This document shows, one piece after another, positions 17,278-55,279 of a stretch of DNA of 64,000 bases. Origin of the DNA: an uncultured Bacteroidales bacterium (GTDB lineage Bacteria > Bacteroidota > Bacteroidia > Bacteroidales > Bacteroidaceae); contig CACZXN010000002.1 in the NCBI GenBank assembly GCA_902785075.1, forward strand, positions 22,991 to 86,990, given 5' to 3'. Each line of letters starts with the position of its first letter. Within the stretch, counting starts at the first letter, position 1. Both the position numbers and the translations under genes were made by a program. Under the pieces are notes generated by a model. The model was not told the DNA's origin and did no database searches. It saw nothing but the letters and a program-made list of their open reading frames with translations.

Positions 17278-18414
17278 ATGATTAGACCGTCATTCTTTTA
17301 TGATACCCTAAAAAGCTATGGTATAGATTTCTATACAGGTGTCCCAGATTCCCTCTTGAAGAATCTTTGTGCTTATATTACCGATCATGCAGATGCTACC
17401 CATCATGTAATTGCAGCCAATGAGGGTGGTGCTATGGGTTTAGCGGCTGGTCATTATTTAGCCACTAACCACATACCTGTTGTCTATATGCAAAACTCAG
17501 GACAAGGAAACACAATCAATCCACTTGCTTCTTTAACAGATCCTGATGTTTACCACATTCCCGTTCTACTCGTTATCGGTTGGCGAGGAAAGCCCGGTAT
17601 TCACGATGAGCCCCAACATGTAAAACAGGGAAAAGTAACAACAGGGTTGCTCAATTTGATGGGTATTGATTATACAGTTCTCGCGAAGGAAGAAGAAAAG
17701 GCTGCCATACAGATTCAAAAAGCTGTGCAGTATATGCAAAACACCAATAACTGTTATGCTTTGGTGATTGAAAAAGACACATTCGATGCTTATACACTTC
17801 AAAATAGCATTAACAATTCCTTAACTCTTTCACGAGAGGAAGCAATCGAGACAGTCGTAGAAACATTGCAACCCACAGCAACTGTAGTTTCAACAACAGG
17901 CATGATTTCTCGTGAATTATTTGAGATTCGGGAAAAGAGAGCCGAAGGGCACCAATGTGATTTTCTTACGGTAGGTTCTATGGGGCATGCTTCTCAGATC
18001 GCTTTAGGTATTGCTCTGGAAAAGCCAGATCGTCATATTTGGTGCTTTGATGGCGATGGTGCCAGTATCATGCACATGGGTAACATGGCAATTGTAGCAC
18101 AAAAAGCACCTAAGAATTATATACATGTAATTTTTAATAATGGAGCACATGATTCTGTAGGAGGCCAACCAACAGTTGGTCTTTCCATTGATTTTCCTGC
18201 TATTGCAAAAGCAATAGGATACAAGGCTACTTTCTGCGTAAGTGATAAAGAGGAGTTGAAAAAGGCACTCTCGATTATCAATACATCCTCTTCGTCCCTA
18301 GAAGGACCTATTTTCTTAGAGGTTAAAGTTAAAAAGGGTAATAGAAAAGACTTAGGGCGCCCAACAACCACTCCAGAACAGAACAAAGAGGCTCTTATGT
18401 CTTTCTTGAAATAA
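17278..18414 (+). CDS. aepY: phosphonopyruvate decarboxylase (ThDP-dependent)
   Basis: ThDP motif GDGASIMHMGN...NNGAHDS. Lies immediately after PEP mutase, 2-nt gap. The ORF-track start at 17221 overlaps aepX; the ATG at 17278 (MIRPSFFYD) is preferred. Confidence 0.85.
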   Translation: MIRPSFFYDTLKSYGIDFYTGVPDSLLKNLCAYITDHADATHHVIAANEGGAMGLAAGHYLATNHIPVVYMQNSGQGNTINPLASLTDPDVYHIPVLLVIGWRGKPGIHDEPQHVKQGKVTTGLLNLMGIDYTVLAKEEEKAAIQIQKAVQYMQNTNNCYALVIEKDTFDAYTLQNSINNSLTLSREEAIETVVETLQPTATVVSTTGMISRELFEIREKRAEGHQCDFLTVGSMGHASQIALGIALEKPDRHIWCFDGDGASIMHMGNMAIVAQKAPKNYIHVIFNNGAHDSVGGQPTVGLSIDFPAIAKAIGYKATFCVSDKEELKKALSIINTSSSSLEGPIFLEVKVKKGNRKDLGRPTTTPEQNKEALMSFLK

Positions 18415-18444
18415 ATAGTCAACAATCATATTGAAAGCAATAGT

Positions 18445-19167
18445 ATGAAAGTAAAGACGGCTGTAATTATGGCAGCAGGTATGGGAACACGTTTCGGTAA
18501 TATGACCGAAAAGATGCCAAAAGGTTTTATCCCATTTAAAGGCAAACCAATGATAGTACGTAGCATTGAGACATTGATTTCATGTGGGATTGAACGAATC
18601 ATTATTGGTACAGGCTATAAAAAAGAAGCATACGAAGAATTAGCCCAAAGATATACACAAATACAATGTGTATTTTCTCCCCTCTATGCTGAGACAAACA
18701 GCATGTACACACTCTACAATAACAGGGAGGCAATAGGTAATGATGACTTTCTGCTATTAGAGTCTGATTTAGTATTTGAAAAAAAGGCAATTCTTGAGCT
18801 GATTAATTGTCCCTTTTCGTCTGCAATGTTAATTACACCAGTAACTAAATTCCAAGACCAATATTATGTAGAGATGAACAATCGATGTGAACTTATCAAT
18901 TGTTCAACAAACAAAGACAGCATTACACCATCAGGAGAACTTGTTGGTATTCACAAACTTAGTAATAGTTTCTATAAAACTTGCATTTCTGAATATGCAA
19001 AACAATTAATAGAGAAACCAAAGTTAGGTTACGAATATCAATTGCTCTACGTCTCACAGAACATTACTCCAATGCATGTTCTTCGATTAGACTCTCTACA
19101 ATGGTATGAAATCGATGATATAAACGACCTGCGTTATGCAGAACAAAATGTGGAAATCGACTTATGA
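18445..19167 (+). CDS. LicC-like nucleotidyltransferase (candidate AEP/phosphocholine cytidylyltransferase)
   Basis: N-terminal AVIMAAGMGTRFG (GxGTR) NTP-transferase motif. 240 aa. Position directly after aepXY. Confidence 0.7.
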   Translation: MKVKTAVIMAAGMGTRFGNMTEKMPKGFIPFKGKPMIVRSIETLISCGIERIIIGTGYKKEAYEELAQRYTQIQCVFSPLYAETNSMYTLYNNREAIGNDDFLLLESDLVFEKKAILELINCPFSSAMLITPVTKFQDQYYVEMNNRCELINCSTNKDSITPSGELVGIHKLSNSFYKTCISEYAKQLIEKPKLGYEYQLLYVSQNITPMHVLRLDSLQWYEIDDINDLRYAEQNVEIDL

Positions 19168-20117
19168 ACTTACTCTTAGACAAAGATCTCACAGCATGTA
19201 AAGAGATACTACTCCAGTCACTTCAACAGGAAAGCAACCCACTCCTCGGTCAGGTATTGGATTTAGTAAAAACTCGAACAGGTAAGATGATGCGCCCACA
19301 AATGGTGCTGCTGTCAGCAAAACTATTTGGCTCCGTTACTCCTGCAGTTTATGCAGTAGCTGTAGCTTTTGAAGCGCTCCACACCGCCAGTTTGATACAT
19401 GACGATGTTGTGGATGAGAGTGATGAACGTAGGGGTCAAGAGTCTGTCAATTATGCTCAGACCAATCGTGTGGCTATTCTTTCTGGGGATTATATCTTGG
19501 GTGAAGCACTCCGGCTAATTGCCTCTGTTAATGATCCTCGGATTGTACTACTCATGTCAAAAGCTTCAAAAGCATTAGCAGACGGAGAATTGCTGCAACT
19601 TCATACCATTCAGTCAGAAGACTTATCTGAGGCAACTTATATGCATGTTATCACCAACAAAACAGCTGTGCTCTTTGCTTCTTGTGCTGCATCTGGAGCC
19701 ACCCTTGTTGGAGCCACACAAGCTGATATTAATAATATCTATCGATTTGCAGAACAAGTAGGGTTGTGCTTCCAAATAAAAGACGACATTCTGGATTTTG
19801 TTGGTGGTGATATTGGGAAACCCCAAGGAAATGATCTCAAAGAAGGGAAAATTACGCTACCTTTACTCTATGCACTTCAAGGACACGAGCAAGAAATGAA
19901 ACCACTTATTCGCTCTGTAAAGGAGGGCACAACAACTCCAGAGGACATCAGCTATCTTATCAATTTTACACAAGAGAATGGTGGAATTGACTATGCAGAA
20001 TCTGTTATGAACAAAATTGCCAATCAAGCTCGACAACTTCTTGATAAATATCCCGAAAGCCCAGTGAAGGTTGCACTCAACGAATATGTCGACTATGTCA
20101 TTGAACGGAAGAAATAG
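19164..20117 (+). CDS. trans-polyprenyl diphosphate synthase
   Basis: FARM LIHDDVVDESDERRG and SARM KDDILDF motifs. ATGA overlap with the preceding NTase gene. Confidence 0.85.
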   Translation: MNLLLDKDLTACKEILLQSLQQESNPLLGQVLDLVKTRTGKMMRPQMVLLSAKLFGSVTPAVYAVAVAFEALHTASLIHDDVVDESDERRGQESVNYAQTNRVAILSGDYILGEALRLIASVNDPRIVLLMSKASKALADGELLQLHTIQSEDLSEATYMHVITNKTAVLFASCAASGATLVGATQADINNIYRFAEQVGLCFQIKDDILDFVGGDIGKPQGNDLKEGKITLPLLYALQGHEQEMKPLIRSVKEGTTTPEDISYLINFTQENGGIDYAESVMNKIANQARQLLDKYPESPVKVALNEYVDYVIERKK

Positions 20118-22326
20118 CTGTTTATCCCTCCTCCTTTTTACTCTCTCATTCTGTTGTTTTCGGCTTCATGCTCAAGAACCGATGGAATGGGATGATTTTA
20201 TGCGTGACATCTATGAGGAATATATAGAAAGTGACGATGAATTGGGGGAAAATTCTTATGCTACCACACAAGAGGAAGATAATGCAACTGACGCTCTACT
20301 TGAGGAATTATATACACTTCACCTATCACCTATCAATTTAAATGATCTAAGAATTGTAAAGGATGCAGAGGAACAAATGATAAACACAAAAGCACGTCTT
20401 CGACAATTACCTTTTCTTAGCGACCAACAAATCGAGGCAATTGTTTATTACGTCAATAATAACTATCCTATGCAATCATTGGGCGAATTGATGCTTATAC
20501 GAGAACTCGATTACCAGACACGCTCCCGATTGCCTTTGTTCTGTTATGTTGGCGAACCTACCGTTCAAAATAAAGATAATATTCTGAAATTACTACGCTA
20601 TGCAAATCATGAAGTTATCGCTCGTACAACTATTCCTTTTTACACCAAAGATGGTTTCTTGGACAAACCCCAAAACATAATTGACGCTTCTCCAAATAAG
20701 ATTTATCGAGGTAATAACAATTATCATTCGCTTCGTTACCAACTTCGTTCCAGACAGCAAAAGCGGTCAAACGGTATTTCACAACAATTAATCGCAGGTT
20801 TTTCTATAGAAAAAGATGCTGGAGAAGATTATTTCGACTACTTGTCTGGCTATGTAATGATGAATGGTTTAGGGAAAATTCGTACATTAATTATAGGAGA
20901 TTACAAACTAAACTATGGATTAGGTCTGATTGTAAATAACAGTTTTAATCTTGGAAAAAATACCATGGGAGTATTATCGAATGCTCCGATATCTAGACAT
21001 GGTATACGTCCACATGCATCTACAGCAGAATCCAATTACTTTCGAGGCATCGCTATCGATTATTCTCTTTGCAGATCTGCTCATCTTTCAGCATTTGTAT
21101 CATATCACGATATTGATGCCACCAAAGATCAAAATTCTGCTATTCCATCTATCACCTCTCTGAAGACTGATGGTTTACATCGGACTTTGCTTGAAAAAAG
21201 CAAGAAAGGTATTGTTCAAGAGTTATCTGGGGGATGTAATCTTAGTTTTTTCCATCGTGGACTTCAGGTTGAATTGACAGGAATAGCCTCGCACTTCTCT
21301 ATACCGCTTAAACCTAAGTACAATACGCCCGCTACAGAATACCGCAAATATAACTTACAAGGCGATAATTTTGGTTCAATCGGATTATTCTATCGATACA
21401 TGACTAATCGATGGAATCTACAAGGAGAATATGCTGTAAGTTTTTCAAATGCGGAAGACAAAGCAATGAATATAGACCATCCCAATAATGGTTTTGCGTT
21501 TGTCAATAACCTACGTTTCCTTGTAGATAACCAGACATCTTTATCTGCTATCGTCAGGTATTATAATCCCAAATATGCTACTCTATATGGCAAATCCTTC
21601 GGAGAGAATTCTCGTCCGCAGAATGAGTTGGGTCTTTTAGTTGGGATTGCAACAGAACCTTGGACACATTTTCATCTTGAGGCTTATGTTGACGGTTTCA
21701 TATTCCCCAAAAAACGCTATCATGCTGCAGCAGGCTCAAAGGGGATAGATGGGCTATTAAAAATGACTTATTCTCCTAACCAAAAATCTTCATGGCAATT
21801 ACGTTATCGAGTGAAATCCAAGGAACAAGACTGTAAAATTGAGCAAGACAAGACAGAACTGTTTTTTAATACCCGTCAAGACTTGCGGCTTCAATGGAAT
21901 TATAAGCTCAACAACTATCTAACTATTCGCACTACAGGCGGATTTGTATATCGTTGGAATGCAGATAGCAACGATGAAATGGGCTATTTATTCAGTCAAC
22001 ATATACGACACGAACGAACATTGGCTCGCCAAAAAGGAAGACAGCGAATAGACGTGATGCTAGCCTATTTCCATACAGATTCATATGCTGCAAAGGTCTA
22101 CACAACATCTCCTTCACTTCTTTACACATTCGGAATGAACTCCTTATATGGCCAAGGAATCAATGCTGTTGCCATGTTTTCGAGAAGTCTTTCGCGAAAT
22201 CTCTTTGCTATTTGCAAGCTATCAGTTACAAAATACTTCGACCGAAACACAATTGGTACAGGATTGGACATGATAAACGCATCTCATAAAGAAGATATAC
22301 AACTACAATTAAGATGGAAAATATAA
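20095..22326 (+). CDS. helix-hairpin-helix domain / predicted beta-barrel protein, unknown function
   Basis: Signal-like MSLNGRNSCLSLLLFTLSFCCFRLHAQ. ComEA-like HhH segment LRQLPFLSDQQIEAIVYY...LGELMLIRELD. The remaining roughly 550 aa has an alternating beta-strand pattern rich in Y/G/N. The start was chosen downstream of the ORF-track TTG at 20071. Confidence 0.55.
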   Translation: MSLNGRNSCLSLLLFTLSFCCFRLHAQEPMEWDDFMRDIYEEYIESDDELGENSYATTQEEDNATDALLEELYTLHLSPINLNDLRIVKDAEEQMINTKARLRQLPFLSDQQIEAIVYYVNNNYPMQSLGELMLIRELDYQTRSRLPLFCYVGEPTVQNKDNILKLLRYANHEVIARTTIPFYTKDGFLDKPQNIIDASPNKIYRGNNNYHSLRYQLRSRQQKRSNGISQQLIAGFSIEKDAGEDYFDYLSGYVMMNGLGKIRTLIIGDYKLNYGLGLIVNNSFNLGKNTMGVLSNAPISRHGIRPHASTAESNYFRGIAIDYSLCRSAHLSAFVSYHDIDATKDQNSAIPSITSLKTDGLHRTLLEKSKKGIVQELSGGCNLSFFHRGLQVELTGIASHFSIPLKPKYNTPATEYRKYNLQGDNFGSIGLFYRYMTNRWNLQGEYAVSFSNAEDKAMNIDHPNNGFAFVNNLRFLVDNQTSLSAIVRYYNPKYATLYGKSFGENSRPQNELGLLVGIATEPWTHFHLEAYVDGFIFPKKRYHAAAGSKGIDGLLKMTYSPNQKSSWQLRYRVKSKEQDCKIEQDKTELFFNTRQDLRLQWNYKLNNYLTIRTTGGFVYRWNADSNDEMGYLFSQHIRHERTLARQKGRQRIDVMLAYFHTDSYAAKVYTTSPSLLYTFGMNSLYGQGINAVAMFSRSLSRNLFAICKLSVTKYFDRNTIGTGLDMINASHKEDIQLQLRWKI

Positions 22327-22609: not shown

Positions 22610-23314
22610 TTATTTACCCCTGACTTTACACATGAAATAAGTGAAATATAAACGTGGGAGCAAACGCAACTGGTCGCCAACCTTATCAACCTCCCTAATA
22701 ACACGAATATTATCCATGAGACCCTTGGAGCGATGAACATTGGAGACTCCTTTTACATCATAATCAGTAATCGTAACAGGAATATGGCGGAACGTCTTCC
22801 CTGCTTGGAACAATTGCTTGGACTGCTTGAAATCTGCAGACATCGGATGATTCAGGTCAAATGGATATTCGCGAAGACATTGAGTACGGGTAAACACAGC
22901 TTGATGGCAATAATACATTTTATGGCTGTTGTGTGGCTCTTTCGCTACAATTAAGTTTCCCTTTTTAAGTATATCTCCATAAACGACATCAGCAGTTAAT
23001 CCCTGTGTAATCACATCAGCAAGCACATGAGGGTTAGCAAACGTATCTGCAGCATTGAGAAAGATGCAATAGTCTCCATGAACCATCTCTACCGCTTTAT
23101 TCATTGCATCATAGATGCCTCGATCGGGAGCAGAAGTATAAAATAAAGGAATTGATGGCTTTAGAGTTGCAAGATACTCAGGAGTTCCGTCAGTAGAAGC
23201 ACCATCCACCACAATACACTCCACATCTGGGTAAGTTTGTTCCCAGACACTCTGAAGCGTCCTCTTTAAAGAAGGTAACGCATTGTATGTGACCGTAATG
23301 ACAGAAATGAGCAT
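22610..23314 (-). CDS. glycosyltransferase family 2
   Basis: N-terminal ISVITVTYNALPSLKRTLQSV...VVDGASTDGT, typical of GT2 (GT-A). 234 aa. Confidence 0.8.
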   Translation of the reverse strand: MLISVITVTYNALPSLKRTLQSVWEQTYPDVECIVVDGASTDGTPEYLATLKPSIPLFYTSAPDRGIYDAMNKAVEMVHGDYCIFLNAADTFANPHVLADVITQGLTADVVYGDILKKGNLIVAKEPHNSHKMYYCHQAVFTRTQCLREYPFDLNHPMSADFKQSKQLFQAGKTFRHIPVTITDYDVKGVSNVHRSKGLMDNIRVIREVDKVGDQLRLLPRLYFTYFMCKVRGK

Positions 23315-37709: not shown

Positions 37710-37774
37710 AGTACGCCTTAAGGCGCACTCGAGTGCGCCCTAAGGCGAACTGCAGTGCGCCCTAGGGCGCACTA
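37710..37774. repeat. 65-bp palindrome-chain repeat, copy 1 (inverted partner at 55215-55279)
   Basis: AGTACGCCTTAAGGCGCACTCGAGTGCGCCCTAAGGCGAACTGCAGTGCGCCCTAGGGCGCACTA is the exact reverse complement of 55215-55279. Confidence 0.95.
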
Positions 37775-37952
37775 ATCTCCGCACCTATCGTTTCGTATCG
37801 AAAGCTTGGAGAACAAATGCGAAATGCGCTTAAAGTGCGAAACAACCCCTATCTTGCTATACGAGGAGATGGTTTTCTGCTACCTTCGAACCATTATACC
37901 AATCGCTTGGTCGATTTTGCCGAAAATATTTTGTAGGGTCGGTCAGATGTTG

Positions 37953-41821: not shown

Positions 41822-43348
41822 ATGAAGCAAAGCTATATGGAACAGAATCTTTTGATATATAACACACTGACTCGGCAAAAAGAATTATTCCGCCCACTCA
41901 ATGCACCACATGTAGGGATGTATGTATGCGGACCTACTGTATATGGTGATGCCCACCTAGGACATGCACGCCCAGCTATTACGTTCGACATCGTATTCCG
42001 CTACCTACAGCATCTTGGCTACAAAGTAAGATATGTGCGCAATATTACAGATGTAGGACATTTGGAGCATGATGCCGATGAAGGAGAGGATAAGATAGCG
42101 AAAAAAGCACGTTTGGAACAATTGGAACCAATGGAAGTGGCTCAGTATTACACTAACCGTTTCCATGATGCAATGGCTGCCTTGAACGTATTACCACCAT
42201 CTATCGAACCACATGCTACTGGTCACATCATCGAACAGGAACAATTGGTACAGGAAATCCTCGATAACGGATTCGCATACGAATCGAACGGTTCTGTCTA
42301 TTTCGATGTAGAAGCCTACAATAAAAAACATAAGTACGGAATCCTATCCGGACGTAATCTCGATGACATCATCAACAACTCACGCGAGTTGGCTGGTGTC
42401 GGCGAAAAGAAAAACCAAGCAGACTTTGCCTTGTGGAAAAAGGCATTACCCGAACATATCATGCGCTGGCCATCAAAGTGGAGCGACGGATTCCCTGGAT
42501 GGCACTGCGAGTGCACAGCAATGGGACGTAAATATCTTGGAAACCATTTCGACATACATGGAGGCGGTATGGACCTCATCTTCCCACACCATGAATGCGA
42601 AATAGCACAGGCGGTTGCCAGCCAAGGTGACCAAATGGTACACTACTGGGTACACAACAACATGATTACCATCAATGGGCAAAAGATGGGAAAGAGTCTT
42701 GGGAATTTCATCACCTTGCAAGAATTCTTTGACGGCAGTCATAAGGATAAAGATGGTAACGAAATGCTGACACAGGCCTATGCACCTATGACAATTCGAT
42801 TCTTCATCCTTCAAGCTCACTACCGCAGTACTGTTGACTTCAGCAACGATGCACTTATCTCGGCAGAGAAAGGCCTGGAACGATTGATGGATGCTCACAA
42901 AGCATTAAAATCTATCCAACCGACAAACGAAGGAACTGTAGATATGGCATTTGTTGATGACCTACGCCAAAAATGCTATGAAGCATTGAACGACGATTTC
43001 AACACCCCAATAGTTATCAGCAACCTTTTCGATGCCACACGTGTCATCAATCAGATTGTCGACAAGAAAGCCACTATTACAGCTGCCGTTTTGGAAGAAC
43101 TTACCAAGGTATTCGAGTTGTTTACCTTCGATCTGTTAGGCTTGAAGTCATCCGTAAGCGGACAGAATGGAGGCGCTGCACGCGAAGAAGCATTTGGTAA
43201 AGTGGTGGATATGCTACTTGAGCAACGTATGAAGGCAAAAGCCAACAAGGACTGGGCTACTAGCGACATGATTCGTGACCAATTAGCAGCATTAGGCTTC
43301 GAGGTTAAAGATACGAAAGACGGATTCACTTGGAAACTGAACAAATAA
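41822..43348 (+). CDS. cysS: cysteine--tRNA ligase
   Basis: HIGH motif ([10 protein letters not shown]) and KMSKS variant (QKMGKSLGN). 508 aa. The -7 box TATCTTTG at 41806-41813 makes the ATG at 41837 (MEQNLLIY) a plausible true start. Confidence 0.9.
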
Positions 43349-43388
43349 TCTCTATAGCACTAAAGAATAAGAACCTATTCCAAATGAT

Positions 43389-43589
43389 ATGAGCAAATTC
43401 CAAAGAATACTACAAAAATCACAGAAGATACTGATGTTCACATCCTTATTCTTCTTGGTCGTTTGCTTAGGTGCCTCGATTTGGGCCGCTAATGTCTTAA
43501 ACGATAATTCTCTGTACTTATACTCAGCAGTTTTTGTACTAGCAATTATCTGGTTCAGTATCACCATCTATCGAAGTTATAAAAAATAA
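43389..43589 (+). CDS. small two-TM membrane protein (hypothetical)
   Basis: 66 aa with two clear hydrophobic helices (MFTSLFFLVVCLGASIWAA and LYSAVFVLAIIWFSITIY). Sits between cysS and a strong terminator. No other support. Confidence 0.4.
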   Translation: MSKFQRILQKSQKILMFTSLFFLVVCLGASIWAANVLNDNSLYLYSAVFVLAIIWFSITIYRSYKK

Positions 43590-43602
43590 GTGATGCGAAA
43601 AC

Positions 43603-43647
43603 AAAAATCCTCCCTTGAACGCTTAATTCAAGGGAGGATTTCTTTTT
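43603..43647. terminator. bidirectional intrinsic terminator
   Basis: 14-bp perfect stem, AATCCTCCCTTGAA (43606-43619) with TTCAAGGGAGGATT (43627-43640). Flanked by an A-run upstream and TCTTTTT downstream. Lies between convergent genes. Confidence 0.85.
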
Positions 43648-43656
43648 GGAAATTCA

Positions 43657-46600
43657 CTATTCCAATAATTTCATTAAAGTATTATCATCAGGATGTTCCG
43701 AATAGTAAGCGATAAACTCCTTAGGCGTCATACCAAAGTAATCACGGAACGTATTACTAAAATGAGAGTGAGACGAGAAACCAACTCGATAGGCTACTTC
43801 AGACACATTCACATTATTGTTTATCAAAAGGTATGCTGCTTGTTTCAAACGATAAGAACGAATGAAGTTATTTGGCGATACACCATAGCGGTCTTTCATT
43901 TTCCTATTCAGATGAACTCGGCTGATTCCTACTATGTTTGCCAACTCGTTCACTCCAAATGAGGAATCATCAAGGTTCTTCTTCAAACTCTCATTGATAC
44001 GTGCAAACAACTTATCATCAGCACTATCGATTGTTTTTTCTGTGTAGTCATAATCAACTTCTGTACGACGCATCTTACCCATCATTTTCTCACGTACCTT
44101 GATACCTTGAATAATTGCACTCTTCAGTTTCAACACATTGAATGGCTTACTGATGAAATGATCGACTTGCAGATTCAAACTATTTATCTCAGCCATATCA
44201 CTATTCTCGCTAGTCAGCATGATGATAGGGATACTATCCGTCTCAGGATTGGACTTAATTCGTTTGCTTAACTCAATACCATTTCCGTCAGGCATCCGAA
44301 TATCTGTCACAACAGCATCAGGGCGAGTCTTCAGAATCTCCTGCCAAGCTTCGTTACCACTATTAGCAGTAAACACGTTAAATGCATCGCTGATTTGCGT
44401 TTTTATGTAAAGGCACAAGTTCTTATCATCATCGACAACCAAGACCGTCTTCTTTGTTTTGTCAACATTGTCAGATTCTTCATCTGTTTCTTGCTCCATT
44501 TCTATATTTGCAAACAAATCATCCTTTGTTTGGAATTCAGAGTCTTCTTCGCCTCGGGGTGACAGTTCCTCTTCTGTTAGATGAATCTTATGTAATGGGA
44601 ATCGCAAGACAAACTCAACACCGTCTGGTTCCATATTATGAACATTTATAGTACCGTGATGTAAGTTTACGAGTTCGTTTACAAGATTCAATCCGATACC
44701 TGAGCCTATCGTCTCATTAGTCACATTATTTGCTTGGAAGAACCGTTCAAAGACATGAGGAATATCCTCCTCTGAGATATACGAACCACTATTGTATATT
44801 CTAATCTCGAACCAATCTATTGCATCTTCCATAAGACTCTTAGTCCTTACGAGTATACGTCCGTTTTCGGGTGTATATTTAAAAGCATTTGACAGAATAT
44901 TCGAAAGGATCTTCTCAAAATGTACCTTATCAACCCATAATGTCTCACTCGGATTGAGGTGGTCGATACGATAATCGATATTCTTGGCTTTCGCATATGA
45001 TGAGAAAGAATCAAACACATCCTTCGAATAGTCGTTGAAATTCACTTCCGAGAAATGAAGATGGAATTGTCCATTATCAATTTTACGTATATCAGTTATC
45101 TGTTTTACGGTCGTAATCAAACGGTCACAATTCAATTTCATAACATTATACATTCCCAACAGACCTTGATCAGTGGTCGAAGCTATCAATTGGGAAAGTG
45201 GGGAGACAATCATCGTCAACGGAGAACGGAGTTCGTGAGCAATGCTGGTAAACATCCTTAATTTAGCTTCTTTCAGGTTTTCTTCCTGTCTGACTGCCAA
45301 CAACAACTGTTGCTGACGTTTCCGCTCCGCATAGATTCTAAAGCCAAAATAGCCAAGAATAAAGAGTACAATGAAATAGGTTAACCATGCAGCGACAGTA
45401 TTGTACCATGGTTGATGGATATTGATTAGCAATGTCTTTTCTATAGCAGATTGTTCGTTGTTCTCCAAATAAGCTTTAAGATGAAGCTTATATGAACCTG
45501 GCGGCAGGTTTGGATAATTAGCCTCCAGGTCAGCACTTGCAAGATGCCATTCTTGGTCATACCCTTCAAGATAATATTGGAAGCGCACTTGATTTGGAGT
45601 TGCAAACTCAGGAACACCAAACGATACTGCAACAGAGTTTTGATCGTGCGACAAAGATAGTTCCGACAGAGCAATTACATTGGCATTCATCGCATTCTGA
45701 TGCTTAAATGGTATATAGCGGATAGGCGCTCCATTAATCCTCACAGACGTAAAGCTAATATCATGAATCAATTTCTTCGGCACTCTCATCAATGTCGCAT
45801 TAAACTTGATGATTCCATTATCACCACCAAATACAATATCATGCGAAGGGGTCATAACGTGAGCATTACGATGGAACTCTCCAATATAGTATCCGTCAAA
45901 CGATGAATAGCTATAGGACTTCATCGATTGCTTGTCAATACGCATGACCGATTTTGATGTTGTCAGCCAAATATCTTTGTCAGCAACTTCAATTGATTTA
46001 ACATTCTCTTCAGGGAGAATCTCAAACGACTCGCCATTCTGTATATTATAAGAGATAAGCCCCTGATTCGTTCCTACCAATAGGGTTTTGTTCATGATGG
46101 CAATACACTGAGGCATCAGGATACTCGATTTAGGGAATTTCACTTCCTCACCTTTCTTGGTTTCGATGTTATAAGAGAAAATACCTTGTGCAGTTCCTAT
46201 CCAAAGTGTACCAAAGTCATCACAACATAGCGAATAAATCCACCCATTGAACGACATCGTAGAAAATAGGTTGGTAACCGTTTTGTTAATCAAATCAACA
46301 ACAAAGACTCCCTGTCCATTCGTACCGACAAACAACAAGTCTTTTTGTGGATAGTATTTTAACATCATTACAAAACTGGTTGATAGGAACTTTAGCCAAT
46401 CTGGCGTCACAAACTGGTTTCCTTGTAGGTATTGTAAACCTCCACCATACGAACCTACCCAAACCGTATTTCGCTTATCGATAGCAATCGTTTGAACTAA
46501 AGAAGATGCTAATCCATTAGAATAGGGTGTAGTGGTTTGGTTTCTTCCTTTAATTTCAAGTTTGAACACTCCACAGCCGTCTGTTCCTACCCAAAATGCA

Positions 46601-47715
46601 TGGTTGTCGTATGCAATAGATGTCACACTTGTTGCATTTAGTTTGTTGTCGTTTGGAGAGAATGCATAATAGCCAATCTCGTTTCTATTTCTTGGTACGA
46701 CAAACACTCCTTTCTGCGCAAACCCAATAATCAGATTACCCTCTTTGTCAGCCGCAAAGGATCTAACTTTGGCAAACTCGATATTCATGCTTGGATCATT
46801 ATAGTGGAATGACGACAACGTTTCCTCTGAAGTCATTTGCCACAATCCATGATTATCTGTTCCTACGAGTATTTTATTGTTCTGATCTTCAAACAAGGTG
46901 GTTATCGGCATCGGGTTGGTGAGCGCATTTGGTGTCGCTCTCAAGATTTTCTGCTGATTATCATATACCAAAATACCATGTCCCGTACCGAAATAAATAT
47001 TCTTGTTTTTATGGCTTTGGATTATAGAGGTGACATTATTAGTCATAAGAATACGATCCACATCAGGAGTGGTTTGATATGTTTGCAAAGTCATCGATTT
47101 CAGGTCAATCTTGAATACTTGTCGAAAAACCACACACCCCCAAAGATTACCATCTGAGTCAATATATATCTGTGAACAGAAAGGGAATGGGGCAATTTTT
47201 CGTAGTTTCCTCGTGATGACAGTATCTACTTCCTGTGTCTCTGTGTTAAAGACAAACAAGCCATTACCTTCAGTCGAAATCAATTTCATATCAGGTTCTA
47301 TATAATCAATGATATGATTCACAGAATAACCCATTACAGAATCCTCATCCACACTCAGTATCTTATGCTCGAGGGTGCAATTTCTTCCGTTCAACAAATA
47401 CAGACCATTACTCGTTGCTAACCAATACTGGTCGTCTCGAAATTCTACAACCTTTTTATAAGCATTAATAGCACTATGATTAGGGAATAGTTTTGTAACA
47501 TCATAAAAATGGGTACCATCGAACACGTTTATTTCTGAAACACAGGAAATCCATGCCAGTCCTTTTGAGTCAATATCTACAGAATACATGTCGCTGGAGG
47601 TCAAACCTGATTGTGTTGTGTAAAGTCTAGAAACTTGCGCAAATGTAACATTGCAGATTGGTAACATCAAACATAATACAGCAAATTTATGAATGATTAT
47701 TGAAAAGTATTTCAT
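43657..47715 (-). CDS. hybrid two-component system sensor kinase/response regulator (HTCS) with AraC-type HTH
   Basis: 1352 aa. Signal/anchor, periplasmic beta-propeller-like repeats and one TM (AAWLTYFIVLFILGYFGF). HisKA (FTSIAHELRSPLT), HATPase (GSGIGLNLV), receiver (VLVVDDD...DIRMPDGNG). C-terminal AraC HTH (SHSHFSNTFRDYFGMTPKEF). Confidence 0.9.
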   Translation of the reverse strand: MKYFSIIIHKFAVLCLMLPICNVTFAQVSRLYTTQSGLTSSDMYSVDIDSKGLAWISCVSEINVFDGTHFYDVTKLFPNHSAINAYKKVVEFRDDQYWLATSNGLYLLNGRNCTLEHKILSVDEDSVMGYSVNHIIDYIEPDMKLISTEGNGLFVFNTETQEVDTVITRKLRKIAPFPFCSQIYIDSDGNLWGCVVFRQVFKIDLKSMTLQTYQTTPDVDRILMTNNVTSIIQSHKNKNIYFGTGHGILVYDNQQKILRATPNALTNPMPITTLFEDQNNKILVGTDNHGLWQMTSEETLSSFHYNDPSMNIEFAKVRSFAADKEGNLIIGFAQKGVFVVPRNRNEIGYYAFSPNDNKLNATSVTSIAYDNHAFWVGTDGCGVFKLEIKGRNQTTTPYSNGLASSLVQTIAIDKRNTVWVGSYGGGLQYLQGNQFVTPDWLKFLSTSFVMMLKYYPQKDLLFVGTNGQGVFVVDLINKTVTNLFSTMSFNGWIYSLCCDDFGTLWIGTAQGIFSYNIETKKGEEVKFPKSSILMPQCIAIMNKTLLVGTNQGLISYNIQNGESFEILPEENVKSIEVADKDIWLTTSKSVMRIDKQSMKSYSYSSFDGYYIGEFHRNAHVMTPSHDIVFGGDNGIIKFNATLMRVPKKLIHDISFTSVRINGAPIRYIPFKHQNAMNANVIALSELSLSHDQNSVAVSFGVPEFATPNQVRFQYYLEGYDQEWHLASADLEANYPNLPPGSYKLHLKAYLENNEQSAIEKTLLINIHQPWYNTVAAWLTYFIVLFILGYFGFRIYAERKRQQQLLLAVRQEENLKEAKLRMFTSIAHELRSPLTMIVSPLSQLIASTTDQGLLGMYNVMKLNCDRLITTVKQITDIRKIDNGQFHLHFSEVNFNDYSKDVFDSFSSYAKAKNIDYRIDHLNPSETLWVDKVHFEKILSNILSNAFKYTPENGRILVRTKSLMEDAIDWFEIRIYNSGSYISEEDIPHVFERFFQANNVTNETIGSGIGLNLVNELVNLHHGTINVHNMEPDGVEFVLRFPLHKIHLTEEELSPRGEEDSEFQTKDDLFANIEMEQETDEESDNVDKTKKTVLVVDDDKNLCLYIKTQISDAFNVFTANSGNEAWQEILKTRPDAVVTDIRMPDGNGIELSKRIKSNPETDSIPIIMLTSENSDMAEINSLNLQVDHFISKPFNVLKLKSAIIQGIKVREKMMGKMRRTEVDYDYTEKTIDSADDKLFARINESLKKNLDDSSFGVNELANIVGISRVHLNRKMKDRYGVSPNNFIRSYRLKQAAYLLINNNVNVSEVAYRVGFSSHSHFSNTFRDYFGMTPKEFIAYYSEHPDDNTLMKLLE

Positions 47716-47755
47716 ACAATTCTTTGATTAGTCTTCTTTAAATAGTAATGCACTG

Positions 47756-47939
47756 CAAAGTTAATACATTTTCAGTATTTCAAAAAGTAAATAAGCAAAT
47801 TCTTCTATAAAAATTGTAAAAAATGTAACAAATAACGCAATTTGACAATAACTAATGGCATTATATTGTTTAAAATGCAAAAAACTCTTTCAAATTTGAA
47901 ACATTGGTTTGGCGCTATAAATTAAAATTTATACCTTTG
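47756..47939. promoter_or_regulatory. AT-rich divergent promoter region (HTCS and T9SS cargo gene)
   Basis: CAAAGTTA at 47756-47763 is a reverse-complement TAnnTTTG box for the HTCS. TACCTTTG at 47932-47939 lies 80 nt upstream of the ATG at 48020. Confidence 0.5.
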
Positions 47940-48019
47940 TACTTGGAATCCAAAATATATGACATTTTCAAATTTATATAACACCAATTTATTAATTTTT
48001 AATCAAAACAATTTTACGA

Positions 48020-51000
48020 ATGAAAAAAATTCTACTTTGTGCAGCATTTACAATTATAAGTTTTGCTGTATTTGCTCAAGATGTTCCAGACGCTTCTCAA
48101 TGGAAGGTTGGTGACGATGTTTCAGAAGCAGTAGGCTTTGGAAACTTGAGTTTCGAAAACGATCCTATGGATTATTGGAAAGTTAACTGTACGAAAGGCA
48201 ATCCAAATCAAACTGGTGGATTGTTTGAAATCTACGATGGATCGGGTGATGTGTTCCAATACCTTTATTTACCTGCAGGTATGTATGAGTTAAACTGTCA
48301 AGGTTACTATCGTTTTGGTACTTCTTGGGATGCGGACCCAAATTCTTACAACGATGGCACATGGAAGAACTTGTCTTTGCTCTATGCAACAGCAGGAACC
48401 TATGACATCACAAGCGAAGAATTCACTGAATCAGGTACTACATTCTCTAATCCCTTGATGCCTCGTTTGTTCGAAGGCGTAATGGAGCAGTTGTATGTTG
48501 GTCCAAAGGAAGGCGAAGATGGTTATCCTGGTTGGGATATGTCTGATGGAACATATTTGGATGGTCGTTGGGGACCTTGTTCTATTCCAGGTTCACTTGT
48601 TTGGTTTGCTTCAGACAAGTATCTTCCATTCGAAAGCGATGAAGATGAAACAGTATATAACAAAGTTACATTCTTTGTAACTGAAGCTTCCTGGGTCAAG
48701 GTTGGTGTTCAAAAGAATGAAACAAAAGATGCTGACTCTTTCATGGCTACCAACTTCCACCTTATTTATAAAGGTACAGCAGATGATGCAGCCAAGATTG
48801 CATTAGCATACAAATCACTTGAAATAGCACAGAAGAAGGCAGAAACGCTTGCTGACGAAATTATGGTTGATTATCAAGCTCTCGGCGCTATGCTTCTCGA
48901 TGCTATTATGGAGCTTGATTACGATGACACTACTGTTGAAGGTATTGAAGCTGCAACTATTGCTTTCAATGAATTATTCACCAATTACACTCAATACTAT
49001 CAAGAAGCAAAGCAACTTACGACAGCTATCGCCGCAATGGAAGAGTTGGCCGCAGCAACTGACTATGAAGGCAAGGAAGCTTTCCTTAAGGCTATCGATG
49101 ATGCTACAACTGTTGCTACAGCAACCGATTTTGACGCAGCAAGTAGCCCTGAAGCATATAAAGAAGCATATAACGCCTTGACAGAAGCAAGAGGTGCTTA
49201 TGTTTTGACTCGTCCTGCTATTGATGGTGTTTACAACTATTCTGACCTTATCAATCAACCATTCTTCTGCAACAATGAATTCAATCCAACATGGGATGAG
49301 GATTTGCAGCAGTATATCTTCAGCGATGAGATTGAAAGCAGTTGGTGTACTGTTACGGAAACTGGTTATAACGACTTGGTGAACGAACATGCTGACTGGA
49401 TTCCTATCTCTAGCAACGTAACTATCGCTTCAAGTGGTAATGATGAAGGTCGCTGGGTCATCAACTCAACTACTTGGCACGGGGGTGTTCCTGCTTCTGT
49501 AACTCTTCAGCACGGATATCCTGCTGTTGGTGGTTGGACCGCTGAGCCTACAGGCAATCCAGAACTTCTCCATCAGACAATAGTTAATCTGCCTAATGGT
49601 TACTATAGCATGAGTGCTCTTATGTGTAATGTACAGGCAATTTCTGATCTTCAGTATGTTTATATCGAAGGAACTGGTGGGGTACAGGAAAAAGCTAACC
49701 TAACCATGGGTGCCCAAGGATGGTGGGGCGGCTGGAGCCGTAACTCAATCTGGGAGAAACTTGAGACAGGTATGGTTGAAGTTACCGATGGTAAGGTTAC
49801 AATCGGTTCAAGCTCTGACTCATTCTATGGTGTTACAGGTTTCCAACTCTATTACTATGGTGAAAAGCCAGACTTCACAGCTATGATTCGTAAAAAACTT
49901 GAAGCCGTTTCTGAGGAAATGGAAAACCTTACATTCCCTGGTGACTTTACTTATGTTGAAGAACTGATGAAGACGATACCAGCTACAATCACTGGTTTCG
50001 AGGCATACGAGGCAGCAAATAAGACAATCGCAGAGATTTCTGAATACACAGCTACTGCATTTAATTATCTGAATAACTGGAATCTGGGCGACCGAATTGC
50101 AAATGCTCAAGTTAACTATGAACCAGATGCACCTGAATACAAGATTCTCGACAAGATGTTCGACTATTTCATGACTATCGGAACAAATGCAACTGATACT
50201 TATAAGACTGCTCAGGAGGCATCTGCACTTTATGACCAGTTAGAGGCTTATTTCACTTATCGTACTAAGGTTGCTGAATATGCTTCTTACTATCCTGCAA
50301 TCAATGATATCATCGCTGATCAGAACACAGGATTGATGGCTGGTATCACTTCAGAGAAGCTTGACAATTACACCAAGTCTCTCGAGGATGCAGAAGCTAT
50401 TGGTGCTGCTGCAGATATCGCTAAGATACTTGAACCTCTTGATTTGGACAAAGCTACTCCAGAGAACCCTGTTGACATCACACTGATTGTTAAAAATCCT
50501 ACATACGATGAAGGTAGTACAGGTTGGGAAGGAGCTATTACAGTAGATAATCGTCTCCACAATGCAGAGCGATTTAATACAAAGTTCGATGTTAGTCAAA
50601 CCATTAAATCTCTTCCTGCAGGATGCTACCTTGTAAAGGTTCAGGCATACTATCGTGACGGTGGTAGCGCAGGTGATGCAAACTCAGGCGTTTACTACAA
50701 TTGGAACGTAGCTGCCAACAAGAACATGGAATATTGGGATAACAAGAATGTTGAACTATATGCTCGCACAAATGAAGCTGAGCGCGTTGAATATGTTCAG
50801 TCACTTGCAAGTGTTCAATATACAGAACCTGGTACTTACAGAATCTTCAATACAACTGACGATTCAAATATCGAACAGGTTGTCGATGAACATGGAAATC
50901 CTGTCTATGATGACGAAGGTAAGGAGGTATGGACAGATCCAGATACTCTTTGGTACACTTACGACGATGCAGAAGTCTCTTGGACATTAGACCAGCGCGT

Positions 51001-51358
51001 TTATATTATCGAAGAGGGTGATACTATTGCAACTTACTACTATCCAAACTCTATGGAAGGTGCAAATGCCCGCTTCAACAAGACTCCTGAGGCATATCAG
51101 AACGAAGTTGTCATTATGGTTGAAGAAGGTAATAATCTCACATTCGGTATCCGCAAGTCAACAGAAATCGACAACGACTGGTGTATGTTCGACAATTGGA
51201 AACTCTTCTATCTCGGCAAGGACACACCTGAGGCTATCAATGAAATTGCAGGCGAAAAGAATGCTGTCAAGGCTATCTTCAACCTTGCTGGCCAACAGAT
51301 GAACGGTCTCCAGAAGGGTCTCAACATTGTTGATGGAAAGAAAGTGTTTGTGAAGTAA
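48020..51358 (+). CDS. large secreted multi-domain protein with T9SS C-terminal sorting domain, unknown function
   Basis: Signal MKKILLCAAFTIISFAVFAQ. Three internally repeated modules. C-terminal ...AIFNLAGQQMNGLQKGLNIVDGKKVFVK resembles a type A Por/T9SS CTD. Confidence 0.8.
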   Translation: MKKILLCAAFTIISFAVFAQDVPDASQWKVGDDVSEAVGFGNLSFENDPMDYWKVNCTKGNPNQTGGLFEIYDGSGDVFQYLYLPAGMYELNCQGYYRFGTSWDADPNSYNDGTWKNLSLLYATAGTYDITSEEFTESGTTFSNPLMPRLFEGVMEQLYVGPKEGEDGYPGWDMSDGTYLDGRWGPCSIPGSLVWFASDKYLPFESDEDETVYNKVTFFVTEASWVKVGVQKNETKDADSFMATNFHLIYKGTADDAAKIALAYKSLEIAQKKAETLADEIMVDYQALGAMLLDAIMELDYDDTTVEGIEAATIAFNELFTNYTQYYQEAKQLTTAIAAMEELAAATDYEGKEAFLKAIDDATTVATATDFDAASSPEAYKEAYNALTEARGAYVLTRPAIDGVYNYSDLINQPFFCNNEFNPTWDEDLQQYIFSDEIESSWCTVTETGYNDLVNEHADWIPISSNVTIASSGNDEGRWVINSTTWHGGVPASVTLQHGYPAVGGWTAEPTGNPELLHQTIVNLPNGYYSMSALMCNVQAISDLQYVYIEGTGGVQEKANLTMGAQGWWGGWSRNSIWEKLETGMVEVTDGKVTIGSSSDSFYGVTGFQLYYYGEKPDFTAMIRKKLEAVSEEMENLTFPGDFTYVEELMKTIPATITGFEAYEAANKTIAEISEYTATAFNYLNNWNLGDRIANAQVNYEPDAPEYKILDKMFDYFMTIGTNATDTYKTAQEASALYDQLEAYFTYRTKVAEYASYYPAINDIIADQNTGLMAGITSEKLDNYTKSLEDAEAIGAAADIAKILEPLDLDKATPENPVDITLIVKNPTYDEGSTGWEGAITVDNRLHNAERFNTKFDVSQTIKSLPAGCYLVKVQAYYRDGGSAGDANSGVYYNWNVAANKNMEYWDNKNVELYARTNEAERVEYVQSLASVQYTEPGTYRIFNTTDDSNIEQVVDEHGNPVYDDEGKEVWTDPDTLWYTYDDAEVSWTLDQRVYIIEEGDTIATYYYPNSMEGANARFNKTPEAYQNEVVIMVEEGNNLTFGIRKSTEIDNDWCMFDNWKLFYLGKDTPEAINEIAGEKNAVKAIFNLAGQQMNGLQKGLNIVDGKKVFVK

Positions 51359-51422
51359 TTTGTTTCTGACCTATAGGTCTAGGACTCATGAGACCTATAA
51401 GTCCTATAACTACTACATCAAG

Positions 51423-51459
51423 GTGCTCAGGCAGGCAATGTCTGGGCACTTGTTTTTTT
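51423..51459 (+). terminator. intrinsic terminator after the T9SS cargo gene
   Basis: GTGCTCAG (51423-51430) pairs with CTGGGCAC (51442-51449), including one G-U pair. Followed by TTGTTTTTTT. Confidence 0.65.
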
Positions 51460-51586
51460 CACATATAATGTGGCCATTATGGAATGCGCACTTATGTTAC
51501 AATCCATTAACGTTGCTATATATGCTTAAGAAAAGGGTCCCTCTTATATATAAAATAAGGTGTAAGAATCGTTTTTCTGCAAAAAA

Positions 51587-51614
51587 ATGATAAATGATAA
51601 ATGGTAAATGGTAA
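51587..51614. repeat. heptanucleotide tandem repeat (ATGATAA x2, ATGGTAA x2)
   Basis: Four contiguous 7-bp units read directly from the sequence. They lie 9 bp upstream of the TAACTTTG -7 box at 51623-51630. Confidence 0.9.
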
Positions 51615-51648
51615 TTATTTCGTAACTTTGCCCTGCTAAATATGTTTT

Positions 51649-52488
51649 ATGGCACAAAATGATGTTGATTTAAAGATAGATGTCGAAGCTATCGTCAAGA
51701 GCAAGGCGGGGAGTAAATACAAGTATTTCCCACGATTTATTGTTAATTGGCTCAAAAAAATCCTTCATCAGGATGAAGTGAACCGCTATCTTATGGGGCG
51801 TGCCAAAGGAAAGTTTGGACAGGATTTCCTTGATGAATGTGTGGCATATCTCGAAATGAATCTCGATGTCAGAGGGCTAGAGAAACTACCTTCGAACGAA
51901 GGCAATCGATACTACACCATCGTTTCTAACCATCCGCTGGGAGGTGAAGATGGTGTGGCCTTAGGCAGCATCTTGTGCCACAAATACGATAGCAAGATCA
52001 AGTATCTGGTCAACGATGTACTGATGAATCTGGAAGGATTAGCTCCGCTATGTATTCCCATCAACAAGACGGGTAACCAAAGCCGCAACTTCCCCAAGAT
52101 GGTCGATTTGGCGTTCCAATCTGAGAACAATGTGCTGATGTTCCCTGCTGGGCTTTGTTCGCGCAAGCAAAACGGAATCATTAGGGATTTGGATTGGAAG
52201 AAAACATTTATTAGCAAGAGTATCGAATACCAACGAGACGTGATTCCTGTGCATTTCTCAGGACAGAATTCAGAGCGGTTCTATCGCATTGCCAACATCT
52301 GCAAAGCATTGCATATAAAAGTGAATATCGCTATGTTGTTTCTCGTTGACGAGATGTATAAGAATGTAGGAAAATCATTTACCGTTACCTTTGGCGAACC
52401 AATTCCTTGGCAGACGTTCGACAAGTCGAAGTCGCATGCCGAGTGGGCACAATGGGTAAAGGATAAAGTATACGAATTAGATAAATGA
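51649..52488 (+). CDS. glsA: lysophospholipid/lyso-aminolipid O-acyltransferase (PlsC/OlsA-like; GlsA-like)
   Basis: 279 aa. Acyltransferase motif region SNHPLGGEDG and FPAGLCSR (PlsC block III-like). ATGA overlap with the downstream GNAT-type N-acyltransferase. Confidence 0.6.
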   Translation: MAQNDVDLKIDVEAIVKSKAGSKYKYFPRFIVNWLKKILHQDEVNRYLMGRAKGKFGQDFLDECVAYLEMNLDVRGLEKLPSNEGNRYYTIVSNHPLGGEDGVALGSILCHKYDSKIKYLVNDVLMNLEGLAPLCIPINKTGNQSRNFPKMVDLAFQSENNVLMFPAGLCSRKQNGIIRDLDWKKTFISKSIEYQRDVIPVHFSGQNSERFYRIANICKALHIKVNIAMLFLVDEMYKNVGKSFTVTFGEPIPWQTFDKSKSHAEWAQWVKDKVYELDK

Positions 52489-55051: not shown

Positions 55052-55214
55052 TGAGAACGGATAAAAACACGATGAAATGGGGAAAAACACAATAAAAACT
55101 GCAAAATACGATGAAACGGAAAAAAAACGATGAATACGTTAAAAAACAAAGAAAAACGGGCATATTTCTCAGTTTTTCTCCAAACGCACGTATTAGATAT
55201 ATAGGTGCTGAGAA

Positions 55215-55279
55215 TAGTGCGCCCTAGGGCGCACTGCAGTTCGCCTTAGGGCGCACTCGAGTGCGCCTTAAGGCGTACT
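55215..55279. repeat. 65-bp palindrome-chain repeat, copy 2 (inverted partner of 37710-37774)
   Basis: TAGTGCGCCCTAGGGCGCACTGCAGTTCGCCTTAGGGCGCACTCGAGTGCGCCTTAAGGCGTACT is the exact reverse complement of copy 1. Confidence 0.95.

Follow-up and report, generated by a model that had tools for sequence, protein, structure and literature searches.

We here describe a gene pair found within a 64,000-nucleotide stretch of DNA (the window; positions 22,991 to 86,990 of contig CACZXN010000002.1, assembly GCA_902785075.1) from an uncultured Bacteroidales bacterium of the family Bacteroidaceae, in which a gene for a hybrid two-component system (HTCS) stands back to back with a gene for one large, presumably secreted protein, herein called the cargo. 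Gut Bacteroidota rely mainly on HTCS regulators for fitting the expression of their genes to the glycans of the diet, and these regulators are usually presented as components of polysaccharide utilization loci (PULs) built around SusC and SusD. The two genes studied here very probably form a conserved sensor-output unit of their own, characteristic of a few uncultured genera of rumen and hindgut Prevotellaceae, with the cargo being most economically read as a non-catalytic glycan-binding protein that is likely to be exported via the T9SS (type IX secretion system).

The HTCS gene occupies positions 43657–47715 of the window on the minus strand and encodes 1352 aa, and the cargo gene occupies positions 48020–51358 on the plus strand, encoding 1112 aa. 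Between them lies a divergent intergenic region of 304 bp (47716–48019, assigned to neither strand) with a GC content of 22%, which holds the promoters of both genes. This layout, with open reading frames (ORFs) of these sizes diverging over an AT-rich region, was as the original prediction, made from the DNA letters of the window, had described it. The same prediction held that no SusC/D, transporter or enzyme genes adjoin the pair and that strong terminators close it at both ends, and these statements were borne out as well. Among the neighbors of the pair in the window we found no genes for SusC/D, transporters or carbohydrate-active enzymes (CAZymes), the flanks being made up of housekeeping genes, with an M16 peptidase, a DUF4890 protein and cysS before the pair, and an acyltransferase and GNAT pair together with an HD phosphohydrolase beyond it. 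Terminator-like hairpin and T-run sites were located at both borders, one with a 15-bp stem at 43605–43641, between the 3′ ends of cysS and the HTCS gene and probably bidirectional, and one at 51421–51451 on the plus strand, in which a T-run comes after a stem of 13 bp, 63 nt past the stop codon of the cargo gene. The susC/susD-like pair by which a PUL is defined is missing from the locus.

Scanning GTDB species genomes for the cargo, we found 141 relatives, with 79 loci being retained, and the relatives all came from uncultured metagenome-assembled genomes (MAGs) of Prevotellaceae or Bacteroidaceae, obtained from the rumen, the reticulum and the omasum, from horse faeces and from comparable sources. 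In 66 loci the upstream DNA extended over 4.5 kb or more, and in 40 of these the immediate divergent neighbor of the cargo gene was a homologue of the HTCS, of 37–87% identity. The median gap between the paired genes was about 304 bp, and the cargo identity among paired relatives fell to about 29%. A SusC-like gene, as probed by tblastn using the SusC/D proteins of the genome itself, was found within 10 kb in 3 of the 79 loci, each time at least 7 kb away and on the other strand. The flanks of the pair changed between lineages. In the sub-lineage of the window (loci L009, L012 and L014) they consisted of cysS and a glycine-lipid-like pair, and other lineages had genes for a glycoside hydrolase of family GH5 and a fused esterase (carbohydrate esterase families CE1/CE6) upstream with GH97-GH31 downstream; still others had PolA-GH127 on the upstream side and a fusion of GH5 and GH43 on the downstream side, or GH43 together with a fasciclin protein. 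In a tree of 80 cargo proteins, a divergent HTCS accompanied 35 of the 52 members of the clade to which the window belongs as well as a sub-branch of the other clade. The linkage is present on either side of the deepest split in the tree, and the adjacency is therefore old and maintained, and not specific to a strain. The coupling of an HTCS to a single secreted protein instead of to SusC/D, as originally proposed, was thus supported by the frequent pairing, by the genus distribution and by the phased repeat that are described below; one of the outcomes named beforehand as capable of overturning it, HTCS homologues invariably linked to PULs with a strain-specific adjacency here, was not what these counts displayed.

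An independent, even sample of 301 genomes from the same family, with an E-value of at most 1e-200 as the cut-off for the HTCS orthogroup, gave closely matching distributions of the two genes. Both the cargo and the HTCS orthogroup were found in 15 of 16 genomes in genus g1, in 13 of 16 in genus g17 and in all four genomes of genus g20, with genus g22 having the cargo in 10 and the orthogroup in 8 of its 16 genomes; all other genera together had the cargo in one genome and the orthogroup in four. Judged by coordinates, the HTCS and cargo genes were back to back in at least 26 genomes of this sample. Five genomes from cargo-negative genera gave HTCS matches (E ≤ 1e-80, about 30–33% identity) in two cases and none in three.

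Such adjacency could be incidental, the HTCS acting on a PUL or on CAZyme genes far away and the cargo being under other control. The genome does have three SusC genes elsewhere, genus g20 carries its two genes on different contigs or far apart, and 26 of the 66 loci have no divergent HTCS. That explanation is, however, difficult to reconcile with an adjacency that persists down to about 29% cargo identity at a constant gap of about 300 bp while the flanks are changing, with the co-occurrence of the two gene families, or with the concentration of a phased sequence element in their shared intergenic region, and we regard it as very improbable.

This element, the heptamer TGWWACA, was found in 74 copies within the 40 pair regions, whereas 300 dinucleotide shuffles gave 12.0 ± 3.3 copies and never more than 21, a six-fold enrichment. 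The pair regions had 5.2 copies per kb and a control set of 238 further intergenic regions from these loci had 1.15 per kb, with the adjoining intergenic regions mostly lacking it, and the background in the genome of the window was 0.64 per kb over 937 intergenic regions. Promoter boxes served as reference points for its positions. The Bacteroidetes −7 promoter consensus is TAnnTTTG, and the −7 box assigned to the cargo gene is TACCTTTG (47932–47939, plus strand), located 81 nt before the ATG and aligned across 30 intergenic regions, with that of the HTCS gene being TAACTTTG (CAAAGTTA on the plus strand; 47756–47763, minus strand), kept as GCAAAG(T/A)TA in relatives. Relative to the −7 box of the cargo gene, the heptamer favored positions −118, −108, −97, −87, −56 and −35, and its commonest spacings were 21 bp (eight times) and 31 bp (nine times), corresponding to two and three helical turns. 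Bacteroides HTCS operators have been predicted to be direct repeats averaging 21 bp apart (Ravcheev et al., PMC3878776), and the phasing seen here matches that predicted architecture. In the window, the copy TGTAACA at 47824–47830 (plus strand), which precedes the −7 box of the cargo gene by 108 nt, is a candidate half-site of an HTCS operator; its position is preserved in L009, L012 and L014, and a degenerate TTGACAA follows about 19 nt downstream, at 47842. Another copy, TGAAACA at 47897–47903 (plus strand), is located 35 nt upstream of the −7 box, at a perfect 14-bp palindrome, TTTCAAATTTGAAA (47888–47901). Scanning the same genome for a wider regulon, we found at least two phased heptamers in 8 intergenic regions only, of which none lay upstream of a recognizable CAZyme gene, and a neighbor carrying the C-terminal tail described further below was seen solely at the region of the pair itself. 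In a different arrangement, found in locus L055 (about 17715–22300), the HTCS gene lies downstream of the cargo gene and a GH5-GH43 gene and is divergent from a different gene of 326 aa; the 333-bp intergenic region beside this HTCS gene has three TGWWACA heptamers, and the element may hence also travel with the HTCS promoter.

Turning to the regulator, the 1352-aa protein is, by its predicted domain content, a complete Bacteroidetes HTCS. An N-terminal signal or anchor is followed by a sensor at about aa 27–770 (window 45406–47637, minus strand) that matched PF07494 (Reg_prop) at 1.4e-20 and PF07495 (Y_Y_Y) at 1.4e-13, and then by a hydrophobic transmembrane segment at aa 770–796. A HisKA-HATPase part at aa 818–1042, having His827 within HELRSPL, precedes a receiver domain at aa 1091–1201 with the receiver Asp within VVTDIRMP (aa 1135–1142), and the protein ends with an AraC-type helix-turn-helix (HTH) domain at aa 1258–1335 (window 43711–43944, minus strand). 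These kinase and output domains matched PF00512, PF02518, PF00072, PF12833 and PF00165 (HisKA, HATPase_c, Response_reg, HTH_18/AraC). The sensor is homologous to the solved sensors of BT4663 type (PDB 4a2l at 2.4e-40 and 3v9f at 1.9e-38) and, to our knowledge, the characterized propeller-type HTCS sensors all bind oligosaccharides. A paralogous HTCS, 46–47% identical, is encoded elsewhere in the genome (C49:15756-19844), beside three genes for classical histidine kinases and near one for a LacI-type regulator; neither a cargo gene nor a CAZyme gene lies in its vicinity. We considered the surroundings of this paralogue as a clue to the ligand and dismissed them, the three kinase genes and the LacI-type gene being uninformative in that respect.

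Relatives of the pair gave the clues to a possible ligand. Their commonest neighboring genes encoded GH5, a fused feruloyl-esterase/SASA (CE1-/CE6-like) esterase and GH43, either alone or fused to GH8 or GH5, with GH97, GH31 and GH127 as further neighbors, and about one in two HTCS-linked loci had the pair embedded among xylan-type CAZymes. We take the combination of GH5, GH8, GH31, GH43, GH95 and GH97 to resemble the glucuronoarabinoxylan locus of B. ovatus. A search of the PDB using the flanking esterase of the relatives matched feruloyl and acetyl-xylan esterases, and the corresponding search using their flanking GH5 protein gave no match. With many relatives embedding the pair among xylan-type esterases and glycoside hydrolases, the notion that it is not detached from glycan use is supported. 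Esterases in which CE6 and CE1 are fused are a hallmark of loci for xylan, one of these being the complex glucuronoarabinoxylan locus of B. ovatus (PMC7110780), and decorated (arabino)xylan is our best guess for the signal, a tentative one that may well turn out to be wrong.

For the cargo protein, the original prediction had found no recognizable glycoside hydrolase, lyase or protease motif, and database searches told the same: at E ≤ 0.1 there was no match in Pfam or NCBIfam, no glycoside hydrolase (GH), polysaccharide lyase (PL) or carbohydrate esterase (CE) family was assigned by Pfam, NCBIfam or PDB sequence searches, and database homologues carry the name 'hypothetical protein', some of them having borderline DUF5013 matches over about 30 aa only. 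We then have structural models. An AlphaFold 2 model of the whole cargo, made from 67 homologues, had a mean pLDDT (predicted local distance difference test) of 86, and a separate model of the first module, M1, reached 95.6. The earlier suggestion of repeated modules, for which structure prediction had been proposed as a check, was upheld by these models, in which three β modules resembling carbohydrate-binding modules (CBMs) or lectins alternate with two helical bundles. Following the Sec-type signal peptide (MKKILLCAAFTIISFAVFA, followed by QD; 48020–48076, plus strand), with cleavage predicted before Gln20, the modeled protein displays a β-jelly-roll M1 (aa 22–254; 48083–48781), a helical bundle H1 (aa 255–398; 48782–49213), a β-sandwich M2 (aa 399–618; 49214–49873), a second helical bundle H2 (aa 619–808; 49874–50443), a β-jelly-roll M3 (aa 809–1068; 50444–51223) and a disordered linker (51224–51268), all on the plus strand. 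Profile–profile comparison indicated that M1 and M3 are homologous (99.6%), with M2 being distant (about 64%, partial).

Foldseek searches with M1 returned almost only CBM61, CBM22, CBM16, CBM4, L-type lectins and a phage tailspike lectin domain, and the domain-level matches obtained with the whole model were CBM61, CBM6, CBM22 and other glycan-binding modules. The modules share the β-jelly-roll with CBM61, CBM6, CBM22 and CBM16, with template modeling (TM) scores to the target of 0.58–0.61 for 2xom and 0.56 for both 2cdo and 4xuo, but they differ from these families in being about 230 aa long with large insertions, in leaving the Pfam CBM models unmatched, and in TM scores to the query of at most 0.40. 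Membership in a defined CBM family was likewise not indicated by sequence, no Pfam CBM model matching the cargo. The family profile did match, at E 1e-6, a galactanase structure of family GH53 (9fli) in its appendages at the N- and C-terminus, an entry for which we found no literature. The most economical reading of the models is that the cargo would bind glycans multivalently and without catalysis, by means of modules that form a new family.

A jelly-roll may also be an enzyme, and the cargo could instead belong to an unrecognized family of β-jelly-roll glycanases or lyases, induced by the HTCS for a first, endo-acting step at the cell surface. The modules are larger than the 130–160 aa of typical CBMs, they hold several invariant polar or aromatic residues (Q80, R98, W172, D176, Y201, D239, E850, R879 and D991), jelly-rolls also bear catalysis of GH16, GH12 and PL7 type, with a GH12-like xyloglucanase being among the weak Foldseek matches (TM about 0.3), and HTCS-proximal PUL genes often include the key endo-enzyme. 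Yet the top 50 Foldseek matches of both searches were almost all CBMs, lectins or non-catalytic appendages, those to catalytic domains were weak and pointed to no consistent family, and the sequence searches of Pfam, NCBIfam and the PDB gave no GH, PL or CE; a threefold module with long helical spacers is, furthermore, typical of multivalent binding and not of catalysis. We consider an enzyme unlikely.

About equally unlikely, in our opinion, is a surface system unrelated to glycans, in which the cargo would act as adhesin, as coat protein or as a factor for inter-bacterial or host interaction, with the HTCS responding to a different cue in the periplasm. The exclusively housekeeping neighbors of the pair, here and in the closest relatives (L009, L012 and L014), would agree with such a role, as would the many other large tail-bearing proteins lacking an enzyme domain, some of which have cargo-like modules. 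The whole-length architecture also resembles the non-toxic C-terminal half of Cry protoxins, in which CBM-like β-rolls and helical bundles alternate as in the cargo, a likeness of architecture only that is silent on substrate. The best whole-length Foldseek matches were to complete Cry protoxins (E 1e-13, TM 0.12); we read them as the shared alternation of β-rolls and helix bundles, and a protoxin function as such was rejected. Against a non-glycan role stand the homology of the sensor to 4a2l and the oligosaccharide binding that, as general knowledge has it, is common to the characterized propeller-type sensors, the placement of the pair among xylan-type CAZymes in about half of the HTCS-linked loci, and the resemblance of the modules to carbohydrate-binding folds.

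The original prediction also held that the cargo is secreted and has a T9SS C-terminal domain (CTD). Its first part agrees with the Sec-type signal peptide; the second had to be modified, the curated CTD models TIGR04183 and PF18962 being unmatched and the protein ending instead in a short, non-canonical tail. This tail (...AIFNLAGQQMNGLQKGLNIVDGKKVFVK; 51269–51355, plus strand) is predicted to form a small three-stranded structure and ends in ...KGLNIVDGKKVFVK, with a motif like G-K-K-x-x-V-K. Its last 30–45 residues or so recur at the extreme C-terminus of other large ORFs in the same MAG, 47 in a first pass and about 78 by iterated search, with the consensus IYNLxGQxxxxLQKGxNIvdGKKvxVK (examples being found at C40:14131-22429, C2:6358-18680 and C34:17564-21226). 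Many of these ORFs show Sec-type N-termini, as far as their N-termini were seen, and among them are GH95, GH43-CBM6 and GH43 (GH5-GH43-like) enzymes on another contig. In comparison, a canonical CTD was found in only 6–8 ORFs of the genome, a genome-wide TIGR04183 search matching 8 other places and not the cargo ORF, and none of 44 tails matched Pfam.

Profile methods nonetheless hinted at a relationship between the tail and canonical CTDs. The iterated hidden Markov model of the tail recruited two CTDs of canonical type (1.8e-5 and 8.5e-4), and hhalign aligned the tail to a set of five canonical CTDs encoded by this genome with a probability of 66% and an E-value of 5.6e-5, matching up the IYxLxG strand and the GxYI strand and requiring one internal deletion of 15 residues. 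The genome encodes the PorU sortase (983 bits). Among 121 genomes of the family, tail and PorU were both found in 77 and both lacking in 36, with 4 + 4 being discordant, of which one genome is only 65% complete and three had just one match, a weak one; the sole PorU-positive genome of genus g4 is also the sole tail-positive one. According to the literature, moreover, the 22 residues at the end of the type-A CTD, comprising motifs D and E, are enough for secretion (PMC10202324). Because of the weak similarity between tail and CTDs, the presence of PorU, its co-occurrence with the tail and this 22-residue precedent, T9SS targeting of the cargo through the short tail is judged likely, and the tail looks like an under-recognized short variant of the type-A signal. 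In common with type-A cargo proteins, the 1112-aa protein starts with a Sec signal whose predicted cleavage leaves Gln as the next residue, and its tail co-occurs with PorU; its end has some resemblance to motifs D and E preceded by an IYxLxG strand, with weak profile similarity to canonical CTDs. It differs from them in that the tail has only about 30–40 residues versus a seven-stranded immunoglobulin-like domain of 70–100 residues, in that it lacks some 15 internal residues, and in that both curated models fail.

Combining these observations, we propose the following chain of events. An oligosaccharide from plant hemicellulose, with decorated (arabino)xylan as the best guess, would enter the periplasm and bind to the twin-propeller/Y_Y_Y sensor of the HTCS, upon which His827 would become phosphorylated and the phosphate be passed to the receiver Asp. 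The AraC-type HTH domain would then bind the helically phased TGWWACA repeats and switch on the cargo promoter, perhaps with autoregulation of the HTCS gene. The cargo would leave the cytoplasm via Sec, with cleavage before Gln20, and thereafter the cell via T9SS through its short tail, to be displayed at the cell surface or released. Its three CBM- or lectin-like β-jelly-rolls, spaced by two helical bundles, would bind plant cell-wall glycan, whereby the cargo may tether the cell to fiber or hold substrate for T9SS-secreted enzymes, filling the role of SusC/D and surface glycan-binding proteins (SGBPs) in a classical PUL. On balance, and with limited confidence, we believe that the cargo is such a glycan-induced, T9SS-delivered and non-catalytic fiber-binding protein.

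Several observations weigh against one or other step of this chain. The genome of the window has no enzyme gene adjacent to the pair, so that the link to xylan comes from relatives only, and by sequence the modules are linked solely to an appendage of a galactanase (9fli) and not to a xylan-binding module. The fold matches between modules and CBMs are weak, the best Foldseek E-value being about 2e-4 at the low TM scores to the query given above. TIGR04183 and PF18962 were not matched by the C-terminus of the cargo either with the whole protein at E ≤ 0.1 or with its last 114 aa at E ≤ 10. As for regulation, there are the 26 loci lacking a divergent HTCS; the heptamer is short and AT-rich, and the sequences compared for it are related and not independent; and the lineage of the window has its exact heptamers 73 bp apart and not 21, the site about 19 bp away being only degenerate. 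Cargo paralogues without a neighboring HTCS still carry the heptamer at about 3 per kb, and therefore the element marks the cargo promoter and is no proof of HTCS binding, although its presence there also fits control in trans.

Comparing the proposed unit with HTCS-regulated Bacteroides PULs (those of BT4663 for heparin and BT1754 for fructan, and the large xylan PUL of B. ovatus), the common traits are a sensor, kinase, receiver and AraC-type domain on one polypeptide with a periplasmic Reg_prop/Y_Y_Y domain homologous to that of BT4663, a regulator that adjoins its presumed target, a candidate operator of phased repeats about 21 bp apart and, in many relatives, xylan-type enzymes near the pair. 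The differences are that the target beside the HTCS is not susC/susD, that the presumed local regulon is here a single gene, and that the output would be a secreted protein of T9SS type and not an importer. With the SGBPs of SusE/SusF type, the cargo shares a non-catalytic, multi-module β-sandwich build, a presumed surface location and a presumed co-regulation with glycan use, and SGBP-B 7kwb was among its Foldseek matches; SGBPs are, however, lipoproteins encoded after susC/D, whereas the cargo has no lipobox, a T9SS-like tail, long helical spacers and no sequence similarity to them. A further parallel is 'Ca. Paraporphyromonas polyenzymogenes' (PMC5831590), described as a fiber-degrading rumen Bacteroidales with many T9SS-tagged proteins outside a SusC/D organization; in the parts of that report available to us its cargo proteins are multi-modular cellulases with canonical CTDs, and an HTCS-cargo dyad is not described there.

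The regulator class and the secretion route are both known already, and the pair would mainly represent a new variant of how the use of plant fiber is organized in these bacteria; in the literature searched we found no description of an HTCS-cargo dyad without SusC/D, of the cargo family or of the short tail. An HTCS orthogroup tied across several genera to a secreted, non-enzymatic protein would mean that the dominant fiber degraders of the rumen have a second way of arranging surface functions that respond to glycans, and the modules of the cargo may represent a new carbohydrate-binding family. With one sensor, a promoter region of about 300 bp having candidate operator sites and one output gene, the pair also makes a clean test system. 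If the tail is a real T9SS signal, lists of Prevotellaceae cargo proteins based on TIGR04183 (e.g. PMC11107044) miss most candidates. A more far-reaching proposal, which we find possible and at the same time doubtful, is that of a SusC/D-independent glycan-response module in some Prevotellaceae genera of rumen and hindgut, in which a dedicated HTCS directly switches on an uncharacterized family of multivalent fiber binders that are exported by T9SS through an unrecognized miniature CTD, with the secretome being under-counted about ten-fold; if true, that would correspond in this genome to about 78 ORFs versus 6–8, with standard models missing the signal.

The genome is a MAG of 2.9 Mb in 105 contigs and is 85.5% complete. 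It was found to have three SusC-like genes and three HTCS genes, to be compared with its about 78 tail-bearing, predicted secreted proteins, and this gene content suggests that fiber handling is centered on T9SS rather than on PULs. Just upstream of the window, at C2:6358-18680 (L091), there are five consecutive tail-bearing ORFs of 228, 660, 1026, 1110 and 490 aa; the two that were scanned, of 1110 and 660 aa, have no Pfam domain, and some ORFs of the cluster share cargo-like modules. In the other large tail proteins sharing such modules, no enzyme domains were found, and they gave no hint of a substrate. An Rfam scan of positions 43000–52000 gave no match, and hence no riboswitch or known leader. 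We also considered a 79-nt inverted repeat of 97% identity (37710–37788 and 55201–55279), delimiting a segment of 17.4 kb that includes the pair, as the borders of an invertible or mobile cassette; this was rejected because the repeat is a dispersed palindromic element having at least 10 copies on 9 contigs (C2, C37, C39, C8, C23, C22, C36, C42 and C4).

The cargo gene was, finally, seen in additional copies. A second paralogue in the same genome, with 30% identity, is cut by a contig end (C12:10-2679, minus strand), and in relatives the clade of this paralogue (L074–L083) follows dnaN/coaBC-like housekeeping genes without an HTCS. In other loci the cargo gene was duplicated either head to head (L056, L057 and L061) or in tandem (L017, L022, L027 and L049), with the HTCS gene of L027 and L049 being located upstream of the first tandem copy.

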